Below, piece by piece: positions 8,228 through 39,626 of a stretch of 48,340 nt of DNA. Both the position numbers and the translations under genes were made by a program. Under the pieces are notes generated by a model. That model saw nothing but the letters and a program-made list of their open reading frames with translations, had not been told where the DNA came from and made no database searches. Source of the DNA: Vicinamibacterales bacterium (GTDB taxonomy: Bacteria > Acidobacteriota > Vicinamibacteria > Vicinamibacterales > CAVVIG01); contig JBEBGB010000003.1 in NCBI GenBank assembly GCA_040081675.1, forward strand, positions 1-48,340, written 5' to 3'. Numbering within the stretch: position 1 is the stretch's first letter; every line of letters begins with the position of its first letter.

Positions 8228-9741
8228 GAGGTCGGCGCCTTCCAGCGCTGTTCGAGACGACGGGCGAGAGCCGAAAGCGGCAGCGACATGGCGAGATAGA
8301 GCGCAGCGCACAGCGCACCGGGCAGCACCCAGCTCCCGAGGTTGGCGGCGAAGATCTGTGTCTGCTTCGTCAGCTCGACGACCGTGAGCACGGACACCAA
8401 CGACGAGTCTTTGAGCAGCGCCACGAAGTCGTTCGTCATCGGAGCCAGCGCGAGACGAAACGCCTGAGGTCCGCGAATGAGCCTGAGAATCTGCCACTCG
8501 GTGAAACCAAGGGTGCGCGCGGCTTCGAGTTGACCTCTACCAATCGCTTCGAGCGCCGACCGATAGATCTCGCTCTCGTACGCGGCATAGTTCAATGCCA
8601 GCCCGAGGAATGCCGCAATGAACGCCGGCAGCCGAATGGCTGTCGCGAGACCGTAGTAGAGAACAAACAGCTGCAGCAAGATCGGCGTGCCGCGCGTGAT
8701 CTCGACGTATGCCGTCAGGACGGCGCGCAGGGGTCCACGGCCATAGACCCGTCCACTGGCGATGACCATACCGAGTGCGACAGCCAGGGCCATCGACGTG
8801 CATGACAGCAGGATCGTCACCACCGATGCCCTCAACAGCGACGGGATGTAGCGCCGGGCCGCCTCCCACCGCGAAATGGCTGACACGGCATTGCTCGTAT
8901 CGAGTCCGACGATGGCCGCGACCGGTTCGCCAGCCAGCACGCGTCGGTAGAGCGGAGGCTGGTCGTCGTTCCACACCCCCCATTTCCGAAAAATACGCTC
9001 GAGCGTGCCGTCGGCCATGGCGGCCTTGAGGATCTCGTCGCAGCGATCGCGCAGGTCGGCGTTCGACCTCGCGAGCACGCCGACATAGTGGCCCGTTGCG
9101 ATACTGCCAGGCTGCACCGTAAATCCAGCCACGTTCTTCGCGCGACGATTCGCCACCACGTTATCGAGCAACACCGCGTCGACACGCCCGTTCACCAGGT
9201 CCTCGTACGGATGCGCGTCATCGTCGTAGGACACGGCTGTGACGGCGTGCTCACGCTCGGCCTTCAGCAGGATTTCATAGGCGATGGTGCCGCCGAGTGT
9301 GGCCACCTTTCGTCCGGCCAGATCGGCAAGCGACCGAAACCGCTGGACGTCGGCGTCGCGCACGGCGAGCACTTCACGAAACTCGTAGTACGGCAGCGTG
9401 ACCGACATGGCCGAGCGGTGGGCCGGCGTGTCCTCGATGCCGCTCAGCCCGATCTCGGCGTCACCACGCGCGACGGCCTGATCGATCGACGCAAAGCCGA
9501 CGAAGACGAACGCAGGGTCGCGTTCGAGCCCCTTGGCCAGGAGCGCGGCGACCTCCACGTCGAAGCCGACCAGGTGAGTGGGATCGTCGGGGCTGGCCTC
9601 GACGAACGGGGCTCCGCCTTCCGGATCGCCGGCCCAGCGGAACACCTGTCGAGTCTGCGCGAGCAATGGCGAACCGGCGTTGGCGGGCAGGATGACGAGC
9701 ATGAGGGCCGTCCAGAGCAGCCGCGCACACGCCTTACTCAC
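8224..9741 (-). CDS. Polar amino-acid ABC transporter, fused substrate-binding protein and permease
   Basis: Signal peptide, family-3 SBP (GFDVE, GRVDAVLLD), permease RGTPILLQL, AAYESEIYR, GQLEAA, LLKDSSLVS. Confidence 0.92.
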   Translation of the reverse strand: MSKACARLLWTALMLVILPANAGSPLLAQTRQVFRWAGDPEGGAPFVEASPDDPTHLVGFDVEVAALLAKGLERDPAFVFVGFASIDQAVARGDAEIGLSGIEDTPAHRSAMSVTLPYYEFREVLAVRDADVQRFRSLADLAGRKVATLGGTIAYEILLKAEREHAVTAVSYDDDAHPYEDLVNGRVDAVLLDNVVANRRAKNVAGFTVQPGSIATGHYVGVLARSNADLRDRCDEILKAAMADGTLERIFRKWGVWNDDQPPLYRRVLAGEPVAAIVGLDTSNAVSAISRWEAARRYIPSLLRASVVTILLSCTSMALAVALGMVIASGRVYGRGPLRAVLTAYVEITRGTPILLQLFVLYYGLATAIRLPAFIAAFLGLALNYAAYESEIYRSALEAIGRGQLEAARTLGFTEWQILRLIRGPQAFRLALAPMTNDFVALLKDSSLVSVLTVVELTKQTQIFAANLGSWVLPGALCAALYLAMSLPLSALARRLEQRWKAPTS

Positions 9742-25428: not shown

Positions 25429-27440
25429 GACGAACTCCTCGCTGTGGTGAGGGCTCCGTCCTCGACCGACCAGGTTGCCCACGCACACCGGCTGTCGTTG
25501 CCCATTCGAGTACTGCGGCCGCCGGTCGTGAGCACCCCCTCGACGACGTCGAGTGCGGAGAACGCAACGAGACGACCGCCGGCGTCGACTCGCGTCCACG
25601 CCGCGAGGGCCGTGCCGGAGAAACCGGGCAGGTCGATGCCGTGGCACGCACCGGCCCACGACAGCGTGTCGATAAAAGCCTCGGACGGGCGAACGCGGTC
25701 CCCTCGACTCGCATCGCCTGTCTGGGGCGTGCGCACCTCGACGACCATGGGATCCTCGAAGCGCGCGCTGCCAGCCAACTGCCGAATGCGAAGTGCAGTG
25801 TCGAAGAGATCGCGTGGCGCGACCGCGGTCAACAGAACCGTCGATGTGGCCCGTGCCGACATCGCCACGACCGGCGCGCGGTGTTTCACGCCGTAGAGCG
25901 GAGCGAACCAGCCGTCCTCGATCCGCAGCGGGAACGCCGGTGTGAACGTGAGCGCGACACCGTCGGCGACGATCACGCCAGGGCGGTCCTGACAGACCGC
26001 AATGTGCTGGCCTGCCTCTGGAGCGAGGTGCCAGCGAAGCTCGTATGTGTGCTCGCGAGCGCCCTCGAGATAGTCCGCGACGAGCCAGTACTCGTTGCCG
26101 ACGAAGAGCACGGCGCGCGAGTGCACGGCCTCGTAGGCCGGGCTCGTGCACTGCCCTGCCACAAGGTCGAAGCGGGGTGCGCTGCCTCGAGCGAGCAGCT
26201 GTCCAGAGGCCACGAGTCCCCCCGGTTTGCGCCTTGCGTACGGCGTCTGGTCGAGTCCGTCGACCAGAACCGTGTTGTGCGCCGCTGTACTCTTGAACCA
26301 GCGTCGCCAGTTCGGCGGTGTTTCCGAGTAGGTGTATCGACCGGGGTCGATCAGCAGCGGCTTGCCGCCTGACGCGGCTTCCACGCTCAGCTGGTCGTAA
26401 TGGCCATGGCCGCCGTCACCGAGCGGTCCGCAGTCGAAGATCAGAAACCGCTCGTCCGCATAGGGACGATCGACGCCCCACCCGCTTCGCTGCGTGTAGT
26501 AGCCGCCTGCCGGGAAACTCGCACACTGACGTGACGGCGCCTGGCCGGCAGCACCTGACGTGGCGGCGTAGACCAGATCCGCGCGGTTCAGCAGTTGTCC
26601 CGCCAGCAGCAGCACGTCGGCGTAGCTCTCGCTGTCGGCGTCCGAGCATGCCGGAATCCGACCGTCCGGCCGGTGGCAATGCAGCGCGAAGTCGGCCGCC
26701 AGCGCGACGCGCTCGGTGAACGAGGCTGGAAGGGCGATGCCCGCCATCCGCGCGTTCTGCATGGCGCCGAGAAACGAGCGCAGGACGATGCAGTGATAGT
26801 GGGTCGAGCCCTCGCGGTGCACCCCGTCGGGCCGCACATCGGCAAGCAGATTCAGATGGAGCTGCTCGAACGCGAAGTCCCGCAGCGCGGCTCCTTCATC
26901 GAGATCGGGGAACGCCAGCGCCGCAACGAGCAGCGCGTACAGTTCCAGCGTTCGATGGTTGCGTTCCTTCGTCAGGTTGTCTCGAACCGAGAGCACCTCA
27001 TCCCACAGATACCCGACGACGCGGTGCGCTTCCTGCTCGGTGAGCGGGTCGCACCCGCCCTCATGCTCGAAGCGGTTCCAGGCGTAGATCCAGTTCTGGA
27101 TGCGGCGTGCCGCCACCTCGGTGTCATCCGCTCCAGCCGGCACCTGCGCCACGAAGCTGGTCACCAGCCGGCGCCAGGCGTCGCGGTACCGCACATCCTT
27201 CGTGTCGGCAAAGGCATGCGCCAGATCGAGACCGTAGTAGAACTTGACCCACTCGACCCGCCACTCCTTATCGTCGGGGAACGGATCGACCCGCCAGTCG
27301 GGCTCGGTGCCGAGCGGCAACGTGAGCCCGCCGATCGTGAAGTAGCCCGTCACCACGTCGTTCGCAACGGCGAGATCGCGGCACGCGCTGTCCAGCACGC
27401 TGAAGACCACGCGGGGCACACAGGCATGTGTCGAACTCAC
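25425..27440 (-). CDS. Heparinase II/III-like polysaccharide lyase family protein
   Basis: NH..LEL, DGVHREGSTHYH, RPDG.IP..SDAD, GHGHYDQLS, DPGRYTY, STAAHNTVLVDG; no evident signal peptide. Confidence 0.87.
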   Translation of the reverse strand: MSSTHACVPRVVFSVLDSACRDLAVANDVVTGYFTIGGLTLPLGTEPDWRVDPFPDDKEWRVEWVKFYYGLDLAHAFADTKDVRYRDAWRRLVTSFVAQVPAGADDTEVAARRIQNWIYAWNRFEHEGGCDPLTEQEAHRVVGYLWDEVLSVRDNLTKERNHRTLELYALLVAALAFPDLDEGAALRDFAFEQLHLNLLADVRPDGVHREGSTHYHCIVLRSFLGAMQNARMAGIALPASFTERVALAADFALHCHRPDGRIPACSDADSESYADVLLLAGQLLNRADLVYAATSGAAGQAPSRQCASFPAGGYYTQRSGWGVDRPYADERFLIFDCGPLGDGGHGHYDQLSVEAASGGKPLLIDPGRYTYSETPPNWRRWFKSTAAHNTVLVDGLDQTPYARRKPGGLVASGQLLARGSAPRFDLVAGQCTSPAYEAVHSRAVLFVGNEYWLVADYLEGAREHTYELRWHLAPEAGQHIAVCQDRPGVIVADGVALTFTPAFPLRIEDGWFAPLYGVKHRAPVVAMSARATSTVLLTAVAPRDLFDTALRIRQLAGSARFEDPMVVEVRTPQTGDASRGDRVRPSEAFIDTLSWAGACHGIDLPGFSGTALAAWTRVDAGGRLVAFSALDVVEGVLTTGGRSTRMGNDSRCAWATWSVEDGALTTARSSS

Positions 27441-29203
27441 CGGACGATCTCCAGCATGGGACGCGGACGAGCCTCCGCCCGCACCGTCCCGCCGGCGATG
27501 CGGTACACGACGTCAGCCCGCGACACCAGCGTCGACTCGTGCGTGATGGCGAGACAGGTCCTGCCCGCCCGCAGGCGTTCGAGCGCATCGAGGATGACCC
27601 GCGCCGACTCGGCATCGACGTTCGCGAGCGGTTCATCCAGCAGCAGAATCGGGCGGTCGAGCAGGAACGCGCGCGCCAGCGACAGCCGTTGACGCTGACC
27701 GCCGGACAGGTTGACGCCGTCCTCGCCGAGCGTCGTGTCGAGCCCAACCGGCAACGACGCCACGAACTCGTCGAGCGCCACGAAGCTGAGTGCGGTTCTG
27801 ATGCGGCGCTCGTCCACCGAGCCCGCGTCGGTCGTCAGCGCCTGCCGCAGTGTCCCCGAGAACAGATGCAGGTCCTGGGTCATCACGGCGAACTGCGATC
27901 GCAACGAGCGAATCGTGTACGCGTCAAGCGGCCGTCCGTCGAGGCGCACAGTACCCGTGGTCGGATCGAACAGCCGGAGGCAGAGGCTGATGAGCGTGCT
28001 CTTCCCAGCGCCGCTCATCCCCACGAGGACAGTAAGCGCGCCAGGCTCGATTCGCATGTTCACGCCGCGCAGTACGGGCGGCCGCTCCGCGCCGTCGGCC
28101 GGGTAGCTGAACCACGCGTCCTGCAGTTCGATGAGCCCCGCAGCCCGATCCAGATTCATCGCACCCGGAGCGTCCTCGACGAGAGGACGCTCGCCGAGAA
28201 AACGCATCAGTCGTTCCCCTGACACGAGCCCCTTCGACGCGGCCTCGGTGATCTCGTTCACCTTGTCGATCGGGCGGACCAGTTGCGCGACGTAGGCAGT
28301 CACCACCGTCAACTCGCCCACGGTCATCCAGCCGCGAATCACAAGCAGCGCCCCGCCGATCGTGGCGGCGGCCGTGACGATGGCGCGGGCTACACCGAAG
28401 CCGCGCTCGAGACCGGCAGCGGCCCGCGACGCCTGCACGCCCGCGCGCAACCCTTCAGCGCTCACTGTGGCGAAACGCTGCCGCGCGCCCTCTGTTGCGC
28501 CGAGCGCCTGGATGACGGGCAACCCGCGAACGATCTCCTGCGCGACGGCCGCCACCTCGCCCTCACGACGACGCTTCGTTCGGGACGCTGCGGCCACGCG
28601 ACGGCCGTGGAACCGCACCAGTGTCCACAGCAGCGGGATGAACACGAGGCACGAGAGCCCCATCCAGGGCGAGAGCCAGGCGATTCCCGCCGCGGTGAAG
28701 AGCAGAGTCCCGCTGAACTTCACGAGCAGCGGGACGGTCTTGGTCCAGAACCGCGTGAACTGATCGACGTCCCCGACGATGCGCATCACGAGCTCGCCGC
28801 TGCGATGGGTGGTGCGGATTGTGGGCGGCAGTGTCTGAAGATGCGCGAGCATGCGGTCGCGGATCGCGAAGGCGAGCCGCTCGCGGATGCGGGCAGCGAT
28901 AACGGCGTCGGCGGCCTCGGCGACGGCGCTTCCGAGGGCGATCACGAGGAACACGCCGCCCAGGACGAGTACGCCTTCCTGCAATCCCAGCGCTCTCATC
29001 CACGAGGGCCAGCTGCCCGCTGTCGGTCCGGCTATAAGTCGGTCGATGATCCACTTCAGTGGCCACGGAGCCAGCGCGTTGCCGGCGACCGCGGTCAAGG
29101 TGATCAGGTTCGCCTTGATGAATGCCCCGCGCAGGGCGAAGACATCGGGCCCGAACGTGCGAGCCAGCTGGCGGAGACGGCCGGGCGCGGGCGCGGAGGT
29201 CAT
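27437..29203 (-). CDS. ABC exporter, fused TMD-NBD (MsbA-like half transporter)
   Basis: Multiple TM helices, PWPLK, GMSGAGKST, LSGGQRQR, LLLDEP, ITH. Confidence 0.93.
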   Translation of the reverse strand: MTSAPAPGRLRQLARTFGPDVFALRGAFIKANLITLTAVAGNALAPWPLKWIIDRLIAGPTAGSWPSWMRALGLQEGVLVLGGVFLVIALGSAVAEAADAVIAARIRERLAFAIRDRMLAHLQTLPPTIRTTHRSGELVMRIVGDVDQFTRFWTKTVPLLVKFSGTLLFTAAGIAWLSPWMGLSCLVFIPLLWTLVRFHGRRVAAASRTKRRREGEVAAVAQEIVRGLPVIQALGATEGARQRFATVSAEGLRAGVQASRAAAGLERGFGVARAIVTAAATIGGALLVIRGWMTVGELTVVTAYVAQLVRPIDKVNEITEAASKGLVSGERLMRFLGERPLVEDAPGAMNLDRAAGLIELQDAWFSYPADGAERPPVLRGVNMRIEPGALTVLVGMSGAGKSTLISLCLRLFDPTTGTVRLDGRPLDAYTIRSLRSQFAVMTQDLHLFSGTLRQALTTDAGSVDERRIRTALSFVALDEFVASLPVGLDTTLGEDGVNLSGGQRQRLSLARAFLLDRPILLLDEPLANVDAESARVILDALERLRAGRTCLAITHESTLVSRADVVYRIAGGTVRAEARPRPMLEIVR

Positions 29204-30585
29204 CGAGCGGTCTCCAGGAAGAGCGCGGCCAGCCGATCGGCGAGCCGATCGCCGTCGAACTGTTCGCGCGCGGTGCGTCGGGCAGCATCAGCCATGTGCG
29301 CCATCAGCGTGCGTTCGTGGTAGGCGCGGGCGAGCGCGTGTGCGAGCGCCGGCGCGTTCTCGGCCGCCACAAGGAGACCGTTCGACTCGTGGCGCACGAC
29401 TTCCGGGATCCCTGACACGTCGGTGGTCACGACGGGCGTCCCGCACGCCATGGCTTCCATCAGCACGTTCGGAATGCCGTCGCGATCGCCGTCCGCGAGC
29501 ACTCGGCAGGGGAGGCAGAACACGTGCGCCCGGTGGTACTCGTCGAACAGGCGCGCCTGGTTCTGCGGGCCGACAATCGTGACGTGACCGCCGAGGTCGC
29601 GCGCGGCGATGAGGTCGCGGATGTCGTTCGCGTGGTCGCCGTCGTTGCCGATGATCACCACCTCGAAGGGAATGGCCTGGGCACGCAGCATGGCCGCCGC
29701 TTCAATGAGGATGTCGAACCCTTTCTTGCGGACCAGGCGGCCGACGCTCAGGATCCGGAACCGCTCGTGCGGCTTGTCCGAAGGAACCCGGCTGGCGAGC
29801 AGCTGGCTGAACTCGGCGTTCAATCCGTGATACAGGCAGTGCACCGTGGCCGTCGGCGCCACGTCGCGCAACATGCGCTGGTTCGTCCCCGTGCAGGTGA
29901 CGGCGAAGCGAGCCGCTTCGAGCTTGCGGCGCAGCACACCCTCCGCGTTCGACGAGTCGGCGTAGATGTCCTTGGCATGGCCCGTAAACGAGAACGACAG
30001 GCCTGTGATGGTCGATGCGAACCAGGCCACCGTCGTGGCGCCGTGCGCGTAGTGCGCGTGCAGATGACGGACGGTCGGTGTGGTTCGGAGTCGGTCGACG
30101 AGTTCCACGGCGTGCAGCAGCTCGCGGATGAAGGAGAGCCTGGCTCGACCCGTGGAACGCCACGGTCGATAGAGCTCCAGCGTCATGATCGTCAGCGCGC
30201 GGGCCAGGCCAATCGGATGGCGCAGGGCCACGCGAACGAGCGCACCGGAGAAGAGCGGCAGGTGCGAGCGCAGCCACGACCCCAGCGGTGTCGACGAGAT
30301 CGATGCGGTGGGCGCAAGGAACTCCGGCGTGGCTCGAATGAGATCCACGACCTTGTGGCGAGGCAAGAGGTCGCTCACCTCGGCTGGCTTGGTGGAGAAC
30401 AGCCGCAGCGGGATGCCGAGCGTTTCGAGCCGGTAGATCTCGCTGAGGATGAACGGCTCCGACGCCCGCGGGTACGCCTTGAGCACATAGGCCAGCCAAG
30501 GCCCTTCCGACGTCGGTCTCGGGCGAGCCGAGTGAGTCGACGTTCCCGCCTTTCCCGGCCCTGCTGGCTTTCCCGCGTCAGTCAT
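29200..30585 (-). CDS. GT4 glycosyltransferase (WcaL-like)
   Basis: YPRASEPFI, HLHAHYAH, FTGHAKDIY, VGRLVRKKG, GDRDGIPNVLMEAMA; ATG 30585. Confidence 0.92.
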   Translation of the reverse strand: MTDAGKPAGPGKAGTSTHSARPRPTSEGPWLAYVLKAYPRASEPFILSEIYRLETLGIPLRLFSTKPAEVSDLLPRHKVVDLIRATPEFLAPTASISSTPLGSWLRSHLPLFSGALVRVALRHPIGLARALTIMTLELYRPWRSTGRARLSFIRELLHAVELVDRLRTTPTVRHLHAHYAHGATTVAWFASTITGLSFSFTGHAKDIYADSSNAEGVLRRKLEAARFAVTCTGTNQRMLRDVAPTATVHCLYHGLNAEFSQLLASRVPSDKPHERFRILSVGRLVRKKGFDILIEAAAMLRAQAIPFEVVIIGNDGDHANDIRDLIAARDLGGHVTIVGPQNQARLFDEYHRAHVFCLPCRVLADGDRDGIPNVLMEAMACGTPVVTTDVSGIPEVVRHESNGLLVAAENAPALAHALARAYHERTLMAHMADAARRTAREQFDGDRLADRLAALFLETAR

Positions 30586-31675
30586 ACGCCGCCGCCAGTG
30601 TCTCGGTGAACCGGCGCGCGCAGACCGTGACGTCGTAGCGACGCTCGACGAGCTGGCGACCGCCTCGCGCGATCGCTCGCGCAAGGTCCGCACGCCCAGC
30701 AACGGTTTCGATGGCAGATGCCAGTGCTCGCGCATCGCCCGCGCGTACGAGCAGGCCTGTTTCGCCGTCGACGATCGCCGACTCGATGGCCCCGGCGCGG
30801 GTAGCCACCACCGGTCGTTCCGACGCCAGCGCTTCGAGGAGGACGTTGGGCAGCCCGTCTCTGTCGCCGGCTTCGTCGACAACCGATGGAACCGCCACGA
30901 GATGTGCGGCGGCGTAGAGCGCCGGCAGGTCGGCGTGGCTGGCACTGCCATGCCACGTGACGCGAGGGCCGATACCGAGCGAGTCCGCCATCGAGCGAAG
31001 CGAGGCGCCGTCGGGGCCGTCGCCCACGATGCACAGCGTCCACGGCACGCGGACCCTGGCAATCGCGTCGAGCAGGACGTTGAATCCCTTCTTGGGAACC
31101 AGTCGACCGACGGCGAGCACGCGCAGCTCACCGTCCGCAGGCAGAGGCGACGGTGCAAAACGCGTCAGGTTGACGCCGTGAGGAATCAGCGCTGGGGTGA
31201 CACCGAGTCTGGCGATCTCCACCTGCGCGTCCGCGTTGCAGACCACCACACACCGCGCGCCAGCCGCTCGACGACCGAGCTCTGGCCGCGGCACCGTTCG
31301 GGCATCCTTGGCATGCGCCGAGAAGCCGTAGGGCACGCCCAATCGTTCAGCGGCGCACGCGGCAACCGCCGCCGGGTGATGCGCGAAGTAGCCGTGAACC
31401 GCGCGCGGTCGGCGGGAGCCCAACTCTTCGACAATCTCACTCGCCTGGTCTTCAATTCTGCCGCTCTTCAGCACGCGAACGCGCGGCGACAGCCGGGCGG
31501 CATCTGGATGTGGCGCAAGGCCGTCGCCGGGCTTGGTGGCGAACGCTGCCATGAGCAGCCCTGCCTGCTCCAAGGCCGCCAGCTCGGGCAGCGCAAACGT
31601 TTCCGAGCGCCGGGGAAATCCGCTGAGGACCACGACAACTCCTGACTCGCGTGGGCTCCGCTGGTCAGTGGACAT
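30578..31675 (-). CDS. GT4 glycosyltransferase (WcaL-like)
   Basis: FPRRSETF, VHGYFAH, SAHAKD, VGRLVPKKG, GDRDGLPNVLLEALA. Confidence 0.92.
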   Translation of the reverse strand: MSTDQRSPRESGVVVVLSGFPRRSETFALPELAALEQAGLLMAAFATKPGDGLAPHPDAARLSPRVRVLKSGRIEDQASEIVEELGSRRPRAVHGYFAHHPAAVAACAAERLGVPYGFSAHAKDARTVPRPELGRRAAGARCVVVCNADAQVEIARLGVTPALIPHGVNLTRFAPSPLPADGELRVLAVGRLVPKKGFNVLLDAIARVRVPWTLCIVGDGPDGASLRSMADSLGIGPRVTWHGSASHADLPALYAAAHLVAVPSVVDEAGDRDGLPNVLLEALASERPVVATRAGAIESAIVDGETGLLVRAGDARALASAIETVAGRADLARAIARGGRQLVERRYDVTVCARRFTETLAAAYD

Positions 31676-32885
31676 GGACGCCGGCTCCCGTTGCGCGCGT
31701 CTTCGCCGCGATCGGACGCATCGTTGGTTGTTGATCCGGGCTCAGCAGGTTCGACACGAGCCGAGGCACCTGTTCGAGCGCGGTGAAGCGCAGCGTCGCG
31801 GGCCGCAGCGACGTCTTGACGGTCGCCATCCAGCGTGTGAGCGCCTGAGAAGAAAGGTCGCGCTGCGCGAGAACGTCGACGAGTCCGATTTCAGCGAAGC
31901 GGGTTGCTCGAATGGTCTGTTCACGCCGGGGAGCTTCGCGCGGCACGAGCAGCGCAGGTTTCCGATAGGCGAGGATCTCGCAGACACTGTTGTAGCCCGC
32001 CATACCGACCACGCGTGTCGCGCGCTCGACGAGCGAGGCGCCGTCGTCGGTGAAGTCGATCAGATGGAAGTCGTCTCGTGTCGCGGCAACGGCGCGCACG
32101 TGCTTCAATGCCGGCTCCGGGCAGAACGGCCCGGTCAGCAGCACGCCCGTCTCCCCGCCTGGAAAGGACGACTCCGAGAACGCGAGGGCCAGTTCCGTAC
32201 CGTCCTGACCTCCGCCCGCCAGGCACAGGGTGAAGGGACGCGCGAGCGCAGCACCCGTCGAAGCAGCGGCCTCGCTGTCGTGGGGCGACCGCCGATCGAG
32301 GTAGCCCACGAATCGCACGCGATGCCGGGTCGACTCGGGGAAGTGGCACTCTTCCGACAGGTCGTAGACCGACGGGTCGCCGTAGATCCAGACCTGGTCG
32401 TAGTACCGCTCGATGCTCGCGTGGTGGCCGGCGGCGGCCCACTCGCGCGCCACGACCGACGGCTCGTCGAGGATGTCGCGGAGGCCGAGCACGGTCTTGA
32501 TCCGTCGTCCCATGCGCAGAGCGGCCAGTGTGGGCTCCAGTTCGCCGAGTGCGCCGAGGGGGACGTTGTCGACAATCAGCAGGTGGGGGTCGAATCGCTC
32601 GAGCGCCGCGCGGATGGTCTGGGAGCGAAGGCCGACGATGTGATCCAACGGGCACGACAGGTGGCGGGCGCTGTACGCGCCAGTCATCTGGTGCTTGCCG
32701 AGTGCGGGCAGCGTGATGCAGTCGATGCCCGCAGGCATGTGGAATGCACCGCCCAAGTGCGTCCCCGAGATGAGCAGAATCGACACGTCGACGTGACGGT
32801 CGACGATCGCACGGGCCAGCGCGAGATTGCGCCGTACGTGGCCCAACCCCATCGTGTCATGCGAGTAGAAGGCGATTCTGTGCAC
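31665..32885 (-). CDS. GT-B glycosyltransferase, COG4671-like; first gene of glycan operon
   Basis: YSHDTMGLGHVRR, LGLRDILD, AGGGQDG, MAGYNSVCE, EQ.IRA; GTG 32885 preceded by AGGAGG (32890-32895). Confidence 0.9.
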   Translation of the reverse strand: MHRIAFYSHDTMGLGHVRRNLALARAIVDRHVDVSILLISGTHLGGAFHMPAGIDCITLPALGKHQMTGAYSARHLSCPLDHIVGLRSQTIRAALERFDPHLLIVDNVPLGALGELEPTLAALRMGRRIKTVLGLRDILDEPSVVAREWAAAGHHASIERYYDQVWIYGDPSVYDLSEECHFPESTRHRVRFVGYLDRRSPHDSEAAASTGAALARPFTLCLAGGGQDGTELALAFSESSFPGGETGVLLTGPFCPEPALKHVRAVAATRDDFHLIDFTDDGASLVERATRVVGMAGYNSVCEILAYRKPALLVPREAPRREQTIRATRFAEIGLVDVLAQRDLSSQALTRWMATVKTSLRPATLRFTALEQVPRLVSNLLSPDQQPTMRPIAAKTRATGAGVHVH

Positions 32886-32951
32886 GCGTCCTCCTGAAAC
32901 TGGCTGGTGTTGCGACCGCGCAACACCGGTGCGACGTCGGTGTATCGCGTC

Positions 32952-33004
32952 GCTGGTTCTAAAGGGCTCGCCGCGAGCGAGGAAATATAGGGAACCGCCG
33001 ATTT
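32952..33004 (-). promoter_or_regulatory. Candidate ECF-sigma promoter, copy 1 (glycan operon)
   Basis: AAAT-N9-CCTATATTTCC-N13-GCCCTTTAGAACCAGC; same blocks and spacing as 35236-35288. Confidence 0.75.
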
Positions 33005-33060
33005 CCGAAACGGGTCTACGCGCGATGCGGTTCGCACCCTGCTGGCGCACGCGACCACAA

Positions 33061-33114
33061 CAGAGTGCATGCTGGTACGACGCGCGTTGTCAGAGGCAGG
33101 TCAAGGGGATGTCA
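33061..33114 (-). promoter_or_regulatory. Three 11-bp-period TGACA direct repeats plus CACTCTG element
   Basis: Plus-strand TGTCA 33088, GGTCA 33099, TGTCA 33110; CAGAGTG at 33061-33067, 20 nt away; same layout as 38834-38898. Confidence 0.65.
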
Positions 33115-33120
33115 AAACAT

Positions 33121-33230
33121 GGGGCAGGGGGCAGGACGGCCGTACAGGTCCTACCCTTCAGAACGGCAGTTCGGCACGGAGAACTCTTTTCTTCCCGCCC
33201 AGCCCGCCGTTCCGGGCCGTCCCGCCCTGC
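33121..33230. repeat. Imperfect inverted repeat of G-rich units downstream of the S8 gene
   Basis: GGGCAGGACGGCC (about 33129-33141) versus GGCCGTCCCGCCC (33215-33227); related to the other intergenic 9-mer repeats. Confidence 0.5.
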
Positions 33231-33234
33231 TGTG

Positions 33235-34611
33235 CTATCGCCGCCTGGAACTGCTGTTGAGCGCTTTGGGAAGATCAACGCGCCCAGCGCCAAGACCGCT
33301 GACCGGCACGGCGTCCTGCGACAGGTCTGTGATGGCGTGGCTCAGCGACAGTTTCCTGAACACCTGTACTTGGAGCGCCACGGCACCCGACAAGAGCGCC
33401 GTGCTGAACGATGTGCCCGACACTGCAGCGTAGAAGCCACCTGGAAAACTGGTAACAACCGCCTCGCCTGGCGTGCCGAGACGGACGGGCGACACACCGT
33501 AGTTCGAGAACACGCTCAGAGTGTCGAGCGTGGTGGTCGAGCCGGCGCCGATTGCATGCGAATCGCCCGCCGGGAAGCGCACGAGGGTCTGCCCGTCGTT
33601 GCCGGCAGCGGCCACCGGAATCGCGTTGAACTTCTGCGCGTAGTTCAACGCTCGAGCGAGCTCGTTCGATTTCTCCGGCATGCTGAAACTCATGTTGATG
33701 ACGCGCGCCCCGTGGTCCACGGCGTAGTAGACCGCCTGCACGATGTCCGATAGCTGTGAGGTGCCGTCCGCACGGAAGGCCTTCAGCGGCATGATGCGGG
33801 CGGTTGGCGCGACGTAGTGCACGAGCCCGGCCACCATGGTCCCGTGTCCAAAGGCCGGCGGCAATGACTCCAGAATGGCGCCGACCGACTGATTCAGCAG
33901 CGCCGAGGTGGAGGTGTTGACCTGCTGGATTCGCAGCTGTTCCAGCACCGCGCCGACCGACTGCTCGAGGACGGCACCGACGGACTGATCGAGGTCGGCG
34001 ATGTCCGACACGGTGCCGGGCAGATTGCGCGTGAAGTCGTATCCGGGAACGACCAGACCCTGCAGCAACGGATGGTTGGCGTCGACGCCCGTGTCGATAA
34101 TCGCCACGACCGAGTTACCGGTTGCCATGGCTTGTGCGGCTGGCAGACGCAGGATTCGTCCGGCAGCCTGAGCGGCGTAGCTCCGTGGGACGGTCCTCCC
34201 GAAGTAGCTCACGGGTGTGTTGGTGCTGAATGCCTCCAGCACAGCGCCGACCGACTGGTTCAGGAGAGGACTCGGCGTACGCTCTGCGACATCGACGCGT
34301 TTGTCGCGCTCGAAGTTCTCGACATCCAGGTCGGCTTCCACTTCCAGCTCGATCTCGACATTGGTCTTGCTCGCTGGTACTGCCACCAGCACGATCGGCG
34401 CCTCAGCGTCGTTGCGGAGTACCTCGACGACGATGAGGCTGTGTCTGGTCAGCACGGTCTCGAGGAGACCGTCTGCGGCTCGCAGCATGTACCGCCGGGC
34501 CTCCTGGGCCTGACCCGACGCCGCGCTGAGAAGTCCCAGCAGGCACGCCACAGTCAGCCGAATGACGCGAAGACCGGCGATGTGTCTGGTGTGTCGCATG
34601 TACATGCTCAC
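33235..34611 (-). CDS. Secreted S8 (subtilisin-like) serine protease with four QSVGA(V/I)LE repeats
   Basis: Signal peptide ending GQA, I9-like prodomain, triad IIDTG / GHGT / SGTSFS, oxyanion AAAGN. Confidence 0.92.
   Translation of the reverse strand: MSMYMRHTRHIAGLRVIRLTVACLLGLLSAASGQAQEARRYMLRAADGLLETVLTRHSLIVVEVLRNDAEAPIVLVAVPASKTNVEIELEVEADLDVENFERDKRVDVAERTPSPLLNQSVGAVLEAFSTNTPVSYFGRTVPRSYAAQAAGRILRLPAAQAMATGNSVVAIIDTGVDANHPLLQGLVVPGYDFTRNLPGTVSDIADLDQSVGAVLEQSVGAVLEQLRIQQVNTSTSALLNQSVGAILESLPPAFGHGTMVAGLVHYVAPTARIMPLKAFRADGTSQLSDIVQAVYYAVDHGARVINMSFSMPEKSNELARALNYAQKFNAIPVAAAGNDGQTLVRFPAGDSHAIGAGSTTTLDTLSVFSNYGVSPVRLGTPGEAVVTSFPGGFYAAVSGTSFSTALLSGAVALQVQVFRKLSLSHAITDLSQDAVPVSGLGAGRVDLPKALNSSSRRR
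33868..34257 (-). repeat. Intragenic peptide repeat QSVGA(V/I)LE x4
   Basis: Copies at 34234-34257, 33964-33987, 33940-33963, 33868-33891; differences mostly synonymous. Confidence 0.95.
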
Positions 34612-35234
34612 TCGGGGCGAGGTTCGCTCAAAGGAAGCCTGATGCTCCGGCGGTGGTCCTCGACCGGGATGTGGAGCTCGAGCCCCTCGTTGGGTTCGTA
34701 CTCCATCTGGAACTCACCGAACTCGTTGCTCAGGCCTCTGGCAACGACGCGACGTCCGCGTGTGACGAGGATCGGCACGTGAGCCGGCGGCGGATCGGGG
34801 ACACGACGGTTCGACACCTGACCGACGAGTGACACGCGAGGCGCGCCCGACAGCTGCTCGAACTTCAGGTGGATCGTGAAGTCGCCAGCCTCGTACAGCG
34901 TCTGACGGTTCATCTCCTCGACAGGACCGCGGACACCCTCCGCGGCCGGCATGCCGACGCTGCCGAACACCAGGCGAGCGGCCAGCGCAGGAAGTGACAG
35001 CGTTCGCTCGGGCCGATGCAGTGAAAAGGCCGCCAGGGCAAACCGGACCAGGTGAACGGGTGGTTCGACGGCGGTATCCTGCCTGGCCGCAGCCGCAACC
35101 GCATCCAGGCGCCGAATCAGTGCGTCGCAGGAGAGGCAGCCGTCCGCCAGATGCGTGCGCATGCCAGCTTCGAGCTCCGGCGCAGCCACTCCGCGGACGA
35201 AGTCGACCCAATGAACGATGTCGAAATGGCTCAT
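34608..35234 (-). CDS. Putative soluble Zn-finger anti-sigma factor with C-terminal beta-rich domain
   Basis: N-terminal HLADGCLSC (ZAS-like Hx4CxxC), no TM helix, linker LVFGS...EGVRG, C-terminal SNEFGEFQM; ATG 35234 overlaps CHAT stop. Confidence 0.7.
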   Translation of the reverse strand: MSHFDIVHWVDFVRGVAAPELEAGMRTHLADGCLSCDALIRRLDAVAAAARQDTAVEPPVHLVRFALAAFSLHRPERTLSLPALAARLVFGSVGMPAAEGVRGPVEEMNRQTLYEAGDFTIHLKFEQLSGAPRVSLVGQVSNRRVPDPPPAHVPILVTRGRRVVARGLSNEFGEFQMEYEPNEGLELHIPVEDHRRSIRLPLSEPRPE

Positions 35235-38185
35235 TGCTGGTTGTATAGGGCCCGAGTTCGGCCCGGAAATATAGGCATCGCAGTATTTTTTCGCCGCCCG
35301 CGGGGCGTTGGTGCCTTCGTCGGCAGAGCGGCAGCCCGGCCGGTGGCCTGACCGACAAGCGTAAATGGTGCCCAGTGATAGGGATGCGGGAATCGAGCGC
35401 GCAGGGAGCGCATCGCCGTCTGCACGGCCACGCCCGTTGGCTGACCCTGGGCGAGGTTGGCGTAGAAGGCGGCCATGAACTCTGCGGTGCTCAAGTCGTC
35501 CACCTGCCACATCGTCAGCAGGAGTGAGCGTGCGCCCGCGTAGAGGAACCCGCGCATCAACCCGACCAATTCGTCGCCGCCCATGACCGCGCTCAGGCCG
35601 GTACCGCAGCCGCTGAGCGTGACCAGATCGGCATCGAGCGTCAGACCGTAGGTGTCAGCGAGTGAGAGATCCCCATCGGCCAGTCGAATGGACGACAGCA
35701 TCGGATTGTCCCGCCGGAAGTACCCGTGGGTTGCGATGTGCACGTAGCGCGACACCGCACCGAGCTCACGCAGACACGCCCGGGTCGCCATCGTCCCGGT
35801 GCGGAGGGTTGGCGCCGGAAGGCACTGCGCCACCTGCGTCGCCTCGTCGCCGATATGCGGGGCGAAGCCATCCGCAAGCGCGAGTACCAGGCTGTCGTGG
35901 TGAGGCGACGGCGGCCTGATCTGGCACAAACGGAACACGCTGGCGCTCGGCGCGTACGAGATGGCGTACGCGTCGATCAACGCGCCACCTGCGTCCTCCA
36001 GCGCGTGAAACGGCAGATAGTGCAGCACTCCGTGCGGCACGACCACCAGGTGCTCTGCACGCAACAAGGGGCGAACTGGCGCAACGAGCTGATCGTAGAG
36101 CTCGCGCAGATGTCGTCGTGTGGCCGCCGACAGGACTGACGCGAAGGTTCGCACGTAGTCTGGCCCGAGCTGGAATTTCGCCAGCTGGAATCGGAGCAGT
36201 TGGAGGGTTCGCGTCACCTGCGTGGTGGTGGCCGCCAGTGGTGACACGCGAACCAGGTCGGGGCCGACCACGCACGCGTAGATCTGGTCGCGTGCGACGA
36301 AGAACTCGAGGAGCATCGTGTCTGGCGGCAGCGCATCCTGGATGTCGGCAAGGCTCGCCGATGTTCCGGTGTGCAGCGATGCCAGGCCTCCGTCGGATTC
36401 GCCAAGGCGGCTCAGCGCCGCCGAAAGCTGCCGCTCGCGGCCGTCGGCCGCTGCCCTCATCTGCCGCAGGCGCTCGTCGTCGAGCGAGGACTGCATCACG
36501 GCCTGCGCCATTCGACGCTGGCACGCGTGCAGCTGCTGCCTGAGCGGGCCGACCAGATCGGGCGTGTGCGTGCCAGCAGCGCGTGGCGTCAGCTCCGAGG
36601 CGCGGAACGCCAGCAACTCGACCAGGCCGCGCGATTTCGCGTCCTCGATGAGACGGAATGTCTCGGCTTCTCTACGCGAGCTGTCATGGCGACCGATAGC
36701 CAGACGAATCAGCCCCTCGTAGACAGCCAGCTTGTCGCCGAGGAATGGCGCCTTCAGATCCTCGGCCGCAATCTGTGCACGCAGCCGCTCGAGCGCCTGC
36801 CTGGCTCGGGTCAACGAGGCTTCGGCCGCGCTCGTGTCGCCGCGCGCCTCGGCCACTTCCCCGCACACGAGGTCCACCTGCCAGGCGAGTGACGATACTC
36901 GAACCTGGGCCAGCGCGGCCTCGGCGGCTCGGGCGCCGCGCGCCGCCTCTCGCAGGTCGCCTCGTCGAAGGGCGATCCGGGTTCGCAACACCTGCCATCG
37001 CACGCGAGTCGAGGGGGACATCGGTCGACGTTCCGCGCCTGCCATCAGTCGACGCGCTTGAGCATCGCGTCCCAGCTGAGAGCAGACGATGGCCCGACCG
37101 AGGTCCACGGTTGCGAGCCAGGGCTGGTTGCGGTCGGCCTGATAGAGCGCCCGCGCTCGAGCGAAGGTCGCCAGCGCCGCCACACCGTCGCCGTGTCTGG
37201 CCAGGGCGGTGGCCAGAAAGACGAGTGACTTCGCCCGCTCGTACCGCAGGCCCAAGGCGGTGAATCCTCTGGCCGCCGCTTCGGCGAGACGACGTGCCCC
37301 AGGTAGATCGTTCAACTCGAGGCAGACCTCGGCTTCGTCCATGTCGCACAACGCGCGGTGATATCGATCGCCGAGTTCCTCGCTCCGGGCACGCGCCACG
37401 GCGTAGGCCGTCAGCGCCTGTGTGTATCGACCGCACAGGAAATGCAGGTAGGCAATGTTGTAGTCGGCGGCCGCCACCAGCATCGTGAGCGCATGTGTCT
37501 CGCTGAACATGCGAACCTTGGCGTACGCCTCGAGCGCGTCGTCGAAGGCATTGAGACTGGTCAAGCACACGGCGATGTTGCGCATCGCCTCGGCCGCGTC
37601 CTGGTGCTGATCGTGGGCTCGAAGTGCCGACTCGGCGCGCCGGTAGCAGGCGAGCGCCTGCTTGAATCGATCCTGCCTGAAATGAAGGTTGCCGACGTTG
37701 CTCTCGAGACGCGCGAGGCGGAGGTCGTCGTCTCGTCGACGAAAGATCGCGCGCGCGCGCCTCGCCCAGCGTTCGGCCTTGTCGTAGCGCCCCAGGTGCA
37801 CCAGCGTGTGAATGGCGCCACTGTAGGTGATGGCCTTCTGCAGTCGGTCGCCCTCAGCGTCGAACTGGGCGATCGCGTCGGTGTAGCGGGCGAGCGCCAG
37901 ACGAAAGCGAGAGCCGAGGGCGAGGCCGTGCCCCTCGGCCCGAAGTGCACGACCTCGGGCAAGCCGATCGCGCGAACGGTCCGCGAGCAAGCGCGCTGTT
38001 CCGGCCAGGCGCTGCCCGCGCCCCAAATCGATCCGCGACTGCCTCGGCACGTCGTCGGCGAGCGCGATCGCCCATTGTGCGGCGTCACGTGTGTGAACGG
38101 TGCGAGCCCACGCTGTCGCCGCGGCCGCGTTCGCCCGCGACAGCCGATCGAGCAGCCGTCGCGACGGCATCGCCGCAACCGCCAT
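35231..38185 (-). CDS. TPR-CHAT caspase-like cysteine protease
   Basis: Long TPR array; EDAKSRGL, VVPHGVLHYLPFHAL, YAPSAS, catalytic HIATHG and LSGCGTG, WQVDD, HPYHWAPF. Confidence 0.93.
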   Translation of the reverse strand: MAVAAMPSRRLLDRLSRANAAAATAWARTVHTRDAAQWAIALADDVPRQSRIDLGRGQRLAGTARLLADRSRDRLARGRALRAEGHGLALGSRFRLALARYTDAIAQFDAEGDRLQKAITYSGAIHTLVHLGRYDKAERWARRARAIFRRRDDDLRLARLESNVGNLHFRQDRFKQALACYRRAESALRAHDQHQDAAEAMRNIAVCLTSLNAFDDALEAYAKVRMFSETHALTMLVAAADYNIAYLHFLCGRYTQALTAYAVARARSEELGDRYHRALCDMDEAEVCLELNDLPGARRLAEAAARGFTALGLRYERAKSLVFLATALARHGDGVAALATFARARALYQADRNQPWLATVDLGRAIVCSQLGRDAQARRLMAGAERRPMSPSTRVRWQVLRTRIALRRGDLREAARGARAAEAALAQVRVSSLAWQVDLVCGEVAEARGDTSAAEASLTRARQALERLRAQIAAEDLKAPFLGDKLAVYEGLIRLAIGRHDSSRREAETFRLIEDAKSRGLVELLAFRASELTPRAAGTHTPDLVGPLRQQLHACQRRMAQAVMQSSLDDERLRQMRAAADGRERQLSAALSRLGESDGGLASLHTGTSASLADIQDALPPDTMLLEFFVARDQIYACVVGPDLVRVSPLAATTTQVTRTLQLLRFQLAKFQLGPDYVRTFASVLSAATRRHLRELYDQLVAPVRPLLRAEHLVVVPHGVLHYLPFHALEDAGGALIDAYAISYAPSASVFRLCQIRPPSPHHDSLVLALADGFAPHIGDEATQVAQCLPAPTLRTGTMATRACLRELGAVSRYVHIATHGYFRRDNPMLSSIRLADGDLSLADTYGLTLDADLVTLSGCGTGLSAVMGGDELVGLMRGFLYAGARSLLLTMWQVDDLSTAEFMAAFYANLAQGQPTGVAVQTAMRSLRARFPHPYHWAPFTLVGQATGRAAALPTKAPTPRGRRKNTAMPIFPGRTRALYNQQ
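35236..35288 (-). promoter_or_regulatory. Candidate ECF-sigma promoter, copy 2 (anti-sigma/S8), inside the CHAT 3' end
   Basis: AAAT-N9-CCTATATTTCC-N13-GCCCTATACAACCAGC followed by A-ATG of the anti-sigma gene. Confidence 0.75.
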
Positions 38186-38829
38186 CAGATCCCTCGCGCT
38201 TTCAGCGCCGATTCGAGCTTCTTGAGACAGCGACCGCGAATGAATCCGATTGAGCCGACGGCCAGGCCGAGGCGGGCGGCAACTTCGGTGTAGGGCACCG
38301 GTTCCTCGGTGAAGAACAACATCCGTACGAGCTCCTGACAGCGTCCGGGCAGGTCAGCGACAGCATCATGGACTGACTGGTCGCGCTGCGCCTCCTCGAT
38401 GATCCGGGCGGCGTTCGGGTCGTCATCGACAACGGCGTCCCCGACGGATTCAGCTCCGACCCACCCAACCTCGCGCTTCGCACGCTGCTTCGCCTTGAGC
38501 GACTTGTGCTGCGCCACGCTCACGAGCCAACCCTTGAGCGCTTCCGGTTTGCGCAGCTTTGGCAGTTCGGTGACGAGCTCGACGCAGACCGCCTGGAAGA
38601 TGTCGCCCGCGCCGTCGTGCGTGGCACCGTACTTCAGGGGAATGGAATAGATCAGGCGTTTGTACCGGTTGACGATGAGAGCCCACGCCGCTTCGTCGCC
38701 TTGGAGGCACCGGCGCACGAGCACCGCATCGGGCACCTCGGCCGGCGACGCCTCCGCGCGCAGCGGCGCCACCGGCTCGGTGGTGGCCATCGGCGGCCCG
38801 GTTCGGCGCATCTGCTCACTGGGCATCAC
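38185..38829 (-). CDS. ECF RNA polymerase sigma-70 factor
   Basis: Region 2 LVRRC..GDEAAW..IV.RY..LIY, DIFQ, LKGWL; region 4 LPGRCQELV, YTEVAARLG..VGSIGFIRGRCL; TGATG overlap with CHAT; start could be ATG 38826 or 38790. Confidence 0.93.
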   Translation of the reverse strand: MMPSEQMRRTGPPMATTEPVAPLRAEASPAEVPDAVLVRRCLQGDEAAWALIVNRYKRLIYSIPLKYGATHDGAGDIFQAVCVELVTELPKLRKPEALKGWLVSVAQHKSLKAKQRAKREVGWVGAESVGDAVVDDDPNAARIIEEAQRDQSVHDAVADLPGRCQELVRMLFFTEEPVPYTEVAARLGLAVGSIGFIRGRCLKKLESALKARGI

Positions 38830-38833
38830 TCCA

Positions 38834-38898
38834 CAGCGTGGCGAAGCGCAGAGCGCGGCGTGTCAAGCGAATGTCAGGAAGATGTCAAGAAAGTGTCA
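38834..38898 (-). promoter_or_regulatory. Four 11-bp-period TGACA direct repeats plus CACGCTG element upstream of ECF sigma
   Basis: Plus-strand TGTCA at 38861, 38872, 38883, 38894; CAGCGTG at 38834-38840, 20 nt away. Confidence 0.75.
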
Positions 38899-38960
38899 AA
38901 AAGGCGGCGACACTCTCTCGACCATTCATCGCGAATCTGAACGAACGCTCGGCCTGCGCA

Positions 38961-39626
38961 TCAAGATCGCCGATTTTCGAGGCGGCATCCATTACTCGCA
39001 GCATCGCGTTCGCGACGTCGACGGGATTTTCGCTGCTGTCGCAACACGAGCAATCCAAGTCCTGCGCCAACAAGCGCCGCACCCGCAAGAATCCCGACAG
39101 CTGCATACGTGACTGGTCCCGGTGGCGGCGACACGCTGCGCCGTGCGGCGTCGGTGGCAGCCCTTCGTCGTGCCAATTCCAGATTCAGGCTCTCCTCACC
39201 TTGCCGCATCGCCCAAAGATGGTTCGCCTCGAGCAGCGGTCGCATGAGCGGCGCAAGCGCCTGGAGCAGCGGCTTCTCCGCACGAATTCGCCAGTCGAAC
39301 TGGGCGTTCACAAACTCGTCGTCTTGCGTGATCGTCCACACTCCGCGTCCAACGAAGTCTCCGAACGCCTGGATGGCAAACCCGTCGGGATAGCGGCTCT
39401 CGGTGACCACGAAGTCCCAGAGCAGCGTGTAGGGCAACCATCCTTTGGTGCGCAGGCGCACGCGTTGGTTGAGTCCGCGCTCGTCTGGCGGCGTCACCTC
39501 CTCGACCGACAGATACACCGCCGGCCACCACCGCGAGAGGTCCAGTGGATCGCGCAGCACATCGGCTACTTCGCCGTTCGTGCCGCGGACTCTCCACGAC
39601 GTGATGAAGTGATAGTCGTTCGACAT
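38961..39626 (-). CDS. SRPBCC/polyketide-cyclase-like protein with C-terminal membrane anchor
   Basis: YHFITSWRV, RWWP.VY, GWLPYTL, GDFVGRGVW, ANH.WAMRQGE; C-terminal hydrophobic helix. Confidence 0.82.
   Translation of the reverse strand: MSNDYHFITSWRVRGTNGEVADVLRDPLDLSRWWPAVYLSVEEVTPPDERGLNQRVRLRTKGWLPYTLLWDFVVTESRYPDGFAIQAFGDFVGRGVWTITQDDEFVNAQFDWRIRAEKPLLQALAPLMRPLLEANHLWAMRQGEESLNLELARRRAATDAARRSVSPPPGPVTYAAVGILAGAALVGAGLGLLVLRQQRKSRRRRERDAASNGCRLENRRS

Follow-up and report, generated by a model that had tools for sequence, protein, structure and literature searches.

Background

What reads a two-block DNA motif that stands directly in front of a gene for a small anti-sigma-like protein, and again in front of a glycan operon, in a bacterium of the order Vicinamibacterales (Acidobacteriota)? 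The motif lies on the minus strand of a stretch of 48,340 nucleotides (GenBank assembly GCA_040081675.1, contig JBEBGB010000003.1, positions 1 to 48,340), hereafter called the window, which is contig C587 of a source genome (G000) of 1366 contigs, 6,581,785 bases (6.58 Mb) and 63.7% G+C. On this strand a gene for a sigma factor of the extracytoplasmic function (ECF) type is followed by genes for a TPR-CHAT protease, the anti-sigma-like protein (here called ASF), an S8 (subtilase) peptidase and a glycosyltransferase/ABC exporter operon, and the order sigma-CHAT-ASF-S8 recurs in related loci. An earlier reading of the window from its letters alone (the sequence-only reading) had proposed that the motif is the likely cognate promoter of the ECF sigma factor. 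From comparison of the motif across genomes, we put the probability at about three in four that it is the target promoter of the uncharacterised, non-autoregulated ECF sigma factor encoded 3 kb upstream.

ECF sigma factors are a major bacterial signalling system, and most of their groups have no known promoter or trigger. The usual shortcut, which is to look upstream of the sigma gene itself, fails for the family considered here because its members are not autoregulated. According to the available part of PMC7826278, the prediction of ECF promoters has assumed autoregulation, and non-autoregulated groups show no motif. Prediction schemes of that kind would miss the present motif, since it does not lie upstream of the sigma gene.

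Results

Two copies of the motif in the window

The motif is present in two copies, each preceded by a tract rich in A and T:

35236..35276, minus strand: motif copy A, with block 1 (gCCTATATTTCC) at 35276..35265, a spacer of 14 nt and the block 2 core CCCTATA at 35250..35244
32952..32992, minus strand: motif copy B, with block 1 (cCCTATATTTCC) at 32992..32981 and the block 2 core CCCTTTA at 32966..32960
35284..35291, minus strand: A/T tract AAAAAATA, resembling an UP element, upstream of copy A
33001..33010, minus strand: A/T-richer tract TTTCGGAAAT, upstream of copy B

The sequence-only reading had given the copies as 35275..35236 and 32991..32952, and the sequences that it quoted were found there. 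Its counts of matching positions (11/11 in block 1, 14/16 in block 2 and 4/13 in the 13-nt spacers) were reproduced, and the AAAT that it had noted 9 nt upstream of both copies (35288..35285 and 33004..33001) proved to belong to an A/T-rich tract that generally precedes block 1 by 9-15 nt. Its division into blocks was borne out in part: the blocks and their spacing are conserved, but the conserved parts are shorter than had been drawn, comprising a TATAT core with a T-run in block 1 and CyCT plus 3 nt in block 2.

Copy A abuts the ATG of ASF (35234), as had been stated, with 1 nt between the end of the copy and the start codon and 9 nt between the end of block 2 and that codon. In agreement with the earlier estimate, 66 nt separate the end of copy B from the GTG (32885) that starts the GT28-like gene at the head of the glycan operon, and AGGAGG is found at 32895..32890, 4 nt upstream of this GTG. 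Copy A is located inside the 3' tail of the CHAT open reading frame (ORF; 38185..35231) and hence is not intergenic in the source genome; the ORF has no stop after its conserved end, ...PYHWAPFTLVGQ, and reads through the motif to a TGA that overlaps the ATG of ASF. The stop that is present in relatives after ...WAPF.L.G has been lost here (35231..35360, minus strand), and a tail of ~38 residues, encoded by the A/T tract and the putative promoter motif and ending in an ATGA overlap with ASF, has been gained.

A 40-nt degenerate pattern, searched with up to 3 mismatches, matched the window twice as compared with 0 matches in 100 dinucleotide-preserving shuffles, and a fuzzy search of all 1366 contigs returned copies A and B as the only matches. 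IUPAC patterns are poor tools for genome scans, since even the best of them recovered no more than 4-14 of the 26 sites known, at an expected 0.4-20 chance matches per genome. Genomes were scanned with a position weight matrix and with a sequence-only covariance model (R1) built from 24 sites. The matrix derived from other genomes scored copy B at 27.0 bits and copy A at 23.4 bits, and only 3 matches in the 6.58 Mb of the source genome reached 17 bits. The third of these (C975:222, 19.9 bits) was judged to be a chance match, as it falls within an ORF of 524 aa for a membrane protein and R1 did not report it; the remainder score 16.7 bits or less. With R1, copy A scored 17.5 bits (E 0.029 per genome) and copy B 19.6 bits (E 0.0057). 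A tail of AACCAGC is common to these two copies only.

Conservation of the motif across Acidobacteriota

In a first set of related loci, the motif was present in 19/19 readable CHAT-ASF junctions, with block 1 reading cccTATATyttt and block 2 CyCTtTw; the junction of one more locus (L050, genome G072) is a run of N where the motif is expected and stands outside the 19. The spacer measured 13-15 nt in these junctions, 14 being the commonest length, and was unconserved in sequence, and the TATAT core and the CT of block 2 carried ~1.3-2.5 bits per position. ASF homologues were found as 3 strong cases among 60 relatives and in 19/401 genomes of a class sample that includes the source genome.

A search of a species-level genome collection with an alignment of the sigma factor yielded 80 further loci from at least 569 relatives. 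These 80 loci are nearly all from Acidobacteriota, among them Vicinamibacterales, Terriglobales, Candidatus Angelobacter, Acidiferrales, Bryobacteraceae and Solibacter. ASF genes in the sigma-found loci were counted where at least 300 nt of upstream sequence was available, loci without ASF and loci cut off ahead of it being left out, and a site was accepted at 17 bits or more on the same strand within 300 nt. By this count 61/62 ASF genes are preceded by the motif, or 60/61 once a duplicate of a training locus is removed. The sequence-only reading had named absence of the motif before orthologous anti-sigma genes as evidence that would speak against its proposal; the motif is present there.

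The non-training sites comprise 59 unique sequences, in which T-A-T-A-T, the T-run and C-y-C-T are near-invariant, although the score threshold accounts for part of this invariance. Of these sequences, 43 have a spacer of 14 nt and 16 a spacer of 15 nt. The consensus is an A/T tract, cccTATATyttt, 14-15 nt and CyCTtwt. From the start of one core to the start of the other there are 23-24 nt, as in a -35/-10 pair whose spacer is 17-18 nt long. The A/T content of the spacer (39%) is about that of the loci as a whole (mean 41%), whereas positions -15 to -9 from block 1 reach 71-92% A/T across the same 59 sites, and this upstream tract is not part of the scoring matrix. Variation within the motif, as CCCT or CTCT and as TATATTTTT or TATATCGAA, follows phylogeny. 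The distance from block 2 to the start codon, 9 nt in the window, ranges from 17 to 118 nt (median ~75) at the 60 non-training ASF sites.

Judged by these sequence comparisons, the motif is a conserved element and not a recent duplication, because the flanks and spacers of the two copies in the window are unrelated. Since the blocks are kept across orders of Acidobacteriota and the spacers are unrelated (4/13), the pattern points to selection on the blocks, as opposed to recent copying. The earlier preference for a -35/-10 promoter over a duplication thus agrees with what was found, blocks and spacing being retained and the spacer free.

Co-occurrence of the motif with the sigma factor

R1 was applied to 61 related genomes and gave 9 matches at E<0.1, all of them in G000, G010, G027, G029 and G036, with a best match elsewhere of E 0.18. 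An orthologue of the sigma factor (E<=1e-25, 46-56% identity) is encoded in exactly the same 5 of the 61 genomes. In G001, the one genome examined that has no orthologue, the best paralogue is 26% identical, and the second-best sigma factors of the orthologue-bearing genomes are 25-29% identical. Sigma factor and ASF are parted in G422, which carries the closest orthologue (60% identity) without ASF, yet has two good sites before secreted-protein genes (E 0.0065 and 0.028). The motif thus appears, from sequence, to travel with sigma orthologues across genomes, and the earlier designation as the likely cognate promoter of the ECF sigma factor gains support.

Genes preceded by the motif

Each genome has 1-3 sites, and at every site examined (before ASF, glycosyltransferase, receiver-domain and DUF4388 genes and the further targets named below) the motif is oriented toward the gene downstream and lies a short way ahead of it. 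It goes with ASF and not with CHAT: three loci (L080, L109 and L132) have the motif between sigma and ASF and no CHAT gene there. Sites precede GT28 or GT4 genes in L046, L047, L066, L068, L070, L090, L106, L126 and G036. The order GT28-GT4-GT4-ABC after S8 that is seen in the window is also found in L046 and L047, where the equivalents of copy B are found 38 nt past the stop of S8 and 18 nt ahead of the ATG of GT28. In G027 (L064) a site stands before an ORF after S8 that was assigned as GT28-like by eye, with no Pfam match.

Among the receiver-domain targets are an HD-domain response regulator and an NtrC-like protein; the other four are small receiver proteins, and two of these fall below the Pfam cut-off. 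DUF4388 targets were recognised by Pfam in two genomes and by eye in a third, and further sites precede genes for a PilZ protein, a CofD-family protein, a Tat-signal amidohydrolase and secreted proteins.

Two side observations concern individual sites. In G029 the last ~40 bases of the CHAT gene, together with the motif, have been duplicated nearly verbatim from contig C364 to contig C128 (L052, ~8016..8110), where the duplicate fronts the gene for the HD-domain response regulator and provides an example of a putative promoter moved to a new gene. In L046 (9524..9600) and L047 (5020..5094), the putative GT28 promoter contains an 11-bp hairpin with block 2 in its loop, and this hairpin has no counterpart in the window. 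The 5' arm of this hairpin (CCTCCT) is complementary to the AGGAGG before the ATG, so that a transcript reading through from S8 would have its ribosome-binding site sequestered and the 5' arm would be missing from a transcript that begins at the motif.

The sigma-CHAT-ASF-S8 cassette and its surroundings

The genes referred to above are the following:

38185..38829, minus strand: ECF-type sigma factor gene, the proposed reader of the motif, a 214-aa ORF whose true start is uncertain
35231..38185, minus strand: TPR-CHAT protease gene, 984 aa (Pfam CHAT 1.9e-59, TPR_12 2e-21)
34608..35234, minus strand: gene for ASF, the anti-sigma-like protein, 208 aa, the first gene downstream of copy A
33235..34611, minus strand: S8 (subtilase) peptidase gene (Pfam Peptidase_S8 1.2e-33), with a signal-peptide-like N-terminus
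27437..32885, minus strand: glycan operon downstream of copy B (GT28-like, GT4, GT4 and ABC exporter, by Pfam)
32885..31665, minus strand: GT28-like gene
31675..30578, minus strand: GT4 gene
~30580..29200, minus strand: GT4 gene
29203..27437, minus strand: ABC exporter gene

The sigma factor was recognised by Pfam Sigma70_r2 (9e-08) and r4 (7.6e-4) and by NCBIfam TIGR02937 (64 bits as compared with a cut-off of 42.9), and in the related loci its orthologues, at 39-60% identity, adjoin CHAT genes. Regions 2 and 4 each contain two cysteines that do not vary among 17 orthologues (C41, C82, C164 and C201 in window numbering), and a metal or redox role for these four is possible. The translation of the TPR-CHAT gene contains the histidine motif HIATHG and the cysteine motif LSGCGTG, which we take to be its catalytic dyad. 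The S8 gene overlaps the stop of ASF, follows ASF in related loci too and is presumably co-transcribed with it; 350 nt separate it from the GT28-like gene. Roughly between residues 118 and 245, the S8 protein carries five short peptide repeats (QSVGAVLE/QSVGAILE), four of which lie between the catalytic Asp and His regions. Its homologues carry equivalent repeats in other letters (QSTAAILE, QSTAGVID, QSTAAVVD), and such repeats could be cleavage or docking sites.

Three to four TTGACA-like hexamers in tandem, with a period of 11 nt, were seen at 38861..38899 and 33088..33115 (both minus strand), ~35 nt upstream of the sigma ORF and ~100 nt upstream of copy B. The only other place in the genome with this triple repeat is C802:6512, in front of a gene for a secreted protein. 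The repeat is kept upstream of GT28 in L062, a locus in which the ORF upstream of the GT28 region contains runs of N (~8800..9340). These arrays were considered as an alternative shared promoter and dropped, as they are not conserved upstream of sigma in other loci; they may be binding sites through which one regulator acts on the sigma gene and the glycan operon alike. Between the pyruvate kinase and sigma genes lies an ORF of 221 aa (38961..39626, minus strand) with a C-terminal hydrophobic segment and no Pfam or NCBIfam match.

ASF as a candidate anti-sigma factor

ASF has no Pfam or NCBIfam match and no obvious membrane segment. Its N-terminus begins with a conserved MSHF, and H28, C33 and C36 are invariant in 18 sequences, in the arrangement H-x3/4-C-x2-C (H-x4-C-x2-C in the window protein). 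A profile of ASF gave weak matches, at E 0.001-0.004, to ChrR (2q1z), 3hug chain B and RsiW (5wuq). ASF thereby resembles the class I zinc anti-sigma domains, which have an N-terminal H-x3-C-x2-C, and differs from these three proteins in the weakness of the matches, in the spacing found in the window protein and in a C-terminal domain that belongs to no named family. A conserved G-E-F in this C-terminal part recalls, on our own assignment, a carboxypeptidase regulatory-like fold.

A model of the sigma-ASF complex scored 0.83 as compared with 0.05 for the best of 3 controls. The mark used for such models was reached by 58/80 solved complexes and 2/110 mismatched pairs, and a pass in this case may only reflect likeness to the sigma/anti-sigma complexes already solved. 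Model runs agreed in at least 92% of contacts, with a predicted local distance difference test score (pLDDT) of at least 78 for the partner. In the model the N-terminal domain of ASF is placed between sigma regions 2 and 4 and contacts sigma residues 41-90 and 146-214; C41 and C82 are among the interface residues. Sequence conservation and the complex model together suggest that ASF is probably the anti-sigma factor of this sigma factor.

Discussion

Attribution of the motif to the sigma factor

The reading of the motif as a target promoter of the cassette's sigma factor has to be set against several observations that weigh the other way. ECF promoters commonly have AAC in the -35 element and CGT in the -10 element, and the motif blocks contain neither; the -35 part is purely A/T, consisting of TATAT and a T-run after an A/T tract. 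Many of the 80 loci are close kin, and their counts overstate independence, although the site sequences still include 59 unique ones. Four of the five R1-positive genomes contributed training sites (the three sites of G036 and the duplicate on G029:C128 stand outside the training set), and R1, the motif being short, reaches only modest E-values per genome (2e-4 to 0.1). G423 has the cassette, but the motif is absent from its CHAT-ASF junction (L063) and R1 gave no match at E<=1 anywhere in this genome. The sequence upstream of GT28 in G422, with the sigma gene 2 kb away, is homologous to that of the window and has no motif, TATAT and CCCTTTA having been replaced; this region has either lost the motif or never had it. 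Lastly, a match of 15 bits or more within 400 nt precedes 0/78 sigma genes for which 400 nt or more of upstream sequence was available, and none is seen before the sigma gene of the window either, just as the sequence-only reading had remarked for the ECF gene itself. Such an absence is untypical, ECF sigma factors usually being autoregulated according to PMC7826278. Because no motif precedes its gene, the sigma factor would not be autoregulated through the motif. The attribution to the sigma factor, as opposed to another factor that accompanies it, depends on the cases of G422 and G036 and on there being no conserved DNA-binding protein in the cassette besides the sigma factor.

A factor of another kind might bind the motif. 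Its blocks are alike (CCCTATA in one, CCCTATA or CCCTTTA in the other) and may be taken for a direct repeat whose period is ~26 nt, and receiver-domain proteins are encoded downstream of it in other genomes, as might be expected if the two blocks were half-sites of an operator bound near a promoter by a conventional transcription factor such as a response regulator. No such factor is conserved in the cassette, however, and the halves are not equivalent, as the T-run and upstream A/T tract of block 1 have no counterpart at block 2. The fixed orientation toward the downstream gene also speaks against an operator, as do the approach of block 2 to within 6-9 nt of the start codon (copy A and L037), which leaves no room for a separate promoter, and a sigma-70 promoter scan of 32800..35400 in which 0 promoter-like sites and no TTGACA/TATAAT match were found. 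At the level of genomes, moreover, the presence of the motif tracks the sigma orthologue, and we regard an operator as improbable. We consider it quite improbable that the motif is a promoter read by some other sigma factor (the housekeeping one with an activator, or another ECF, the neighbouring ECF being unrelated to it). The complete absence of the motif from the upstream regions of the neighbouring ECF genes would fit that explanation, as would the cassette-bearing G423 without motif and the many sigma-70-family genes per genome (1 to 44 candidates at first look). A housekeeping promoter would not, however, be restricted to 1-3 occurrences per genome, nor does the motif match TTGACA/TATAAT; and the R1 matches at E<0.1 are confined to the 5/61 genomes with an orthologue, none being found in the other 56, where those paralogues that were looked at are ~25-29% identical.

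It is also very improbable that the motif acts in RNA (as a leader, a small RNA or a processing site) or is a functionless remnant of a recent duplication or mobile element. Short inverted repeats do occur in both window spacers (CTCGC...GCGAG and GGGCC...GGCCC), block 2 sits in a hairpin loop in L046 and L047, and in G029 the end of a CHAT gene has been carried to another site along with the motif. RNAalifold nevertheless found no consensus pair in the 24 aligned sites, Rfam gave no match at E<=1, the distance to the start codon varies from 9 to ~120 nt, and the window copies combine unrelated flanks and spacers with blocks that persist across orders.

Comparison with known systems

A target promoter of the cassette's sigma factor would be in keeping with the target promoters of ECF groups as they are presented in the available part of PMC7826278. 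These likewise consist of two short blocks at a fixed distance with a free spacer, and they are few per genome, lie near the sigma cluster before a partner gene and a few output genes, and co-occur with the sigma factor. A literature search found no description of the motif; the supplementary group descriptions of PMC7826278 may list one.

The gene content of the cassette recalls the Csx29/Csx30/CASP-sigma system of type III-E CRISPR loci, in which proteolysis of an inhibitor is the switch, as described in the part of PMC10028731 that was available. In that account, as in the cassette on the present reading, a TPR-CHAT gene lies beside an ECF-like sigma factor and a sigma-binding inhibitor, and target motifs of the sigma factor are located inside the locus before other genes and not only before its own. 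The CHAT protein of the cassette is not Csx29 (41 bits with the NCBIfam Csx29 model, against a cut-off of 300), ASF resembles zinc-type anti-sigma proteins, and an S8 peptidase has been added as a constant member. No CRISPR or cas genes were seen in the annotated part of the window, in which no search was aimed at them.

A second parallel is the ECF54 group, which the part of PMC8999054 consulted links to carboxypeptidase, subtilase and CHAT proteins and for which it proposes control by proteolysis without an anti-sigma factor; the consulted part of PMC7826278 gives ECF54 no clear regulator. CHAT and subtilase genes flank the sigma gene in the cassette as well, and no carboxypeptidase-type domain was found by Pfam in any protein scanned. 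ECF54 was defined in Actinobacteria, whereas the cassette loci are from Acidobacteriota. In contrast to ECF54, which the consulted parts of both papers describe as having no anti-sigma factor, the cassette has a small protein between CHAT and S8 that looks like one.

A possible regulatory circuit

The motif would comprise a -35-like element (TATAT and the T-run), preceded by the A/T tract, and a -10-like element (CyCTtwt). Transcription from copy A would drive the ASF and S8 genes and so provide negative feedback on the sigma factor together with an output. With only 9 nt between block 2 and the ATG, no Shine-Dalgarno sequence and a conserved N-terminal MSHF, the ASF-S8 mRNA would be leaderless or nearly so, starting at the ATG of ASF or within a few bases of it; in most other genomes its leader would measure ~75 nt. 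Copy B would drive the glycosyltransferase/ABC exporter operon through a leader of ~66 nt.

The activity of the sigma factor would then be set post-translationally. ASF is hypothesized to hold the sigma factor until the TPR-CHAT or the S8 protease removes it on a signal; by analogy with Csx29/Csx30/CASP-sigma the TPR-CHAT protein is the obvious, if speculative, candidate for the release. Taken further, and as a tentative suggestion to which we give rather less than even odds, the cassette may represent a CRISPR-independent counterpart of the Craspase arm that is widespread in Acidobacteriota, in which CHAT (perhaps with S8) cleaves ASF on some cue and frees a cysteine-rich, non-autoregulated sigma factor that fires a very small regulon, recognisable by an unusual promoter whose -35 part is all A/T.

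Conclusions

The motif offers a sequence handle on the regulon of a module made up of a sigma factor, a CHAT protease, an anti-sigma-like protein and a subtilase, and at least 569 stretches in the species-level collection, mostly from uncultured soil Acidobacteriota, encode a relative of this sigma factor. Notable about it are an all-A/T -35 part, the lack of autoregulation and its location within the CHAT gene or right behind it. Through the motif the module is connected with glycosyltransferase/exporter operons and with signalling proteins of the receiver, PilZ and HD-domain kinds. The findings also suggest that an anti-sigma factor does exist in a family described as having none, and the module bears on what a CHAT protease does outside CRISPR systems. 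If the proposed circuit is true, its regulon would consist of ASF and a protease, an operon for the synthesis and export of cell-surface glycans, and second-messenger or receiver proteins, and the promoter motif would make both circuit and regulon readable from sequence in hundreds of uncultured genomes.

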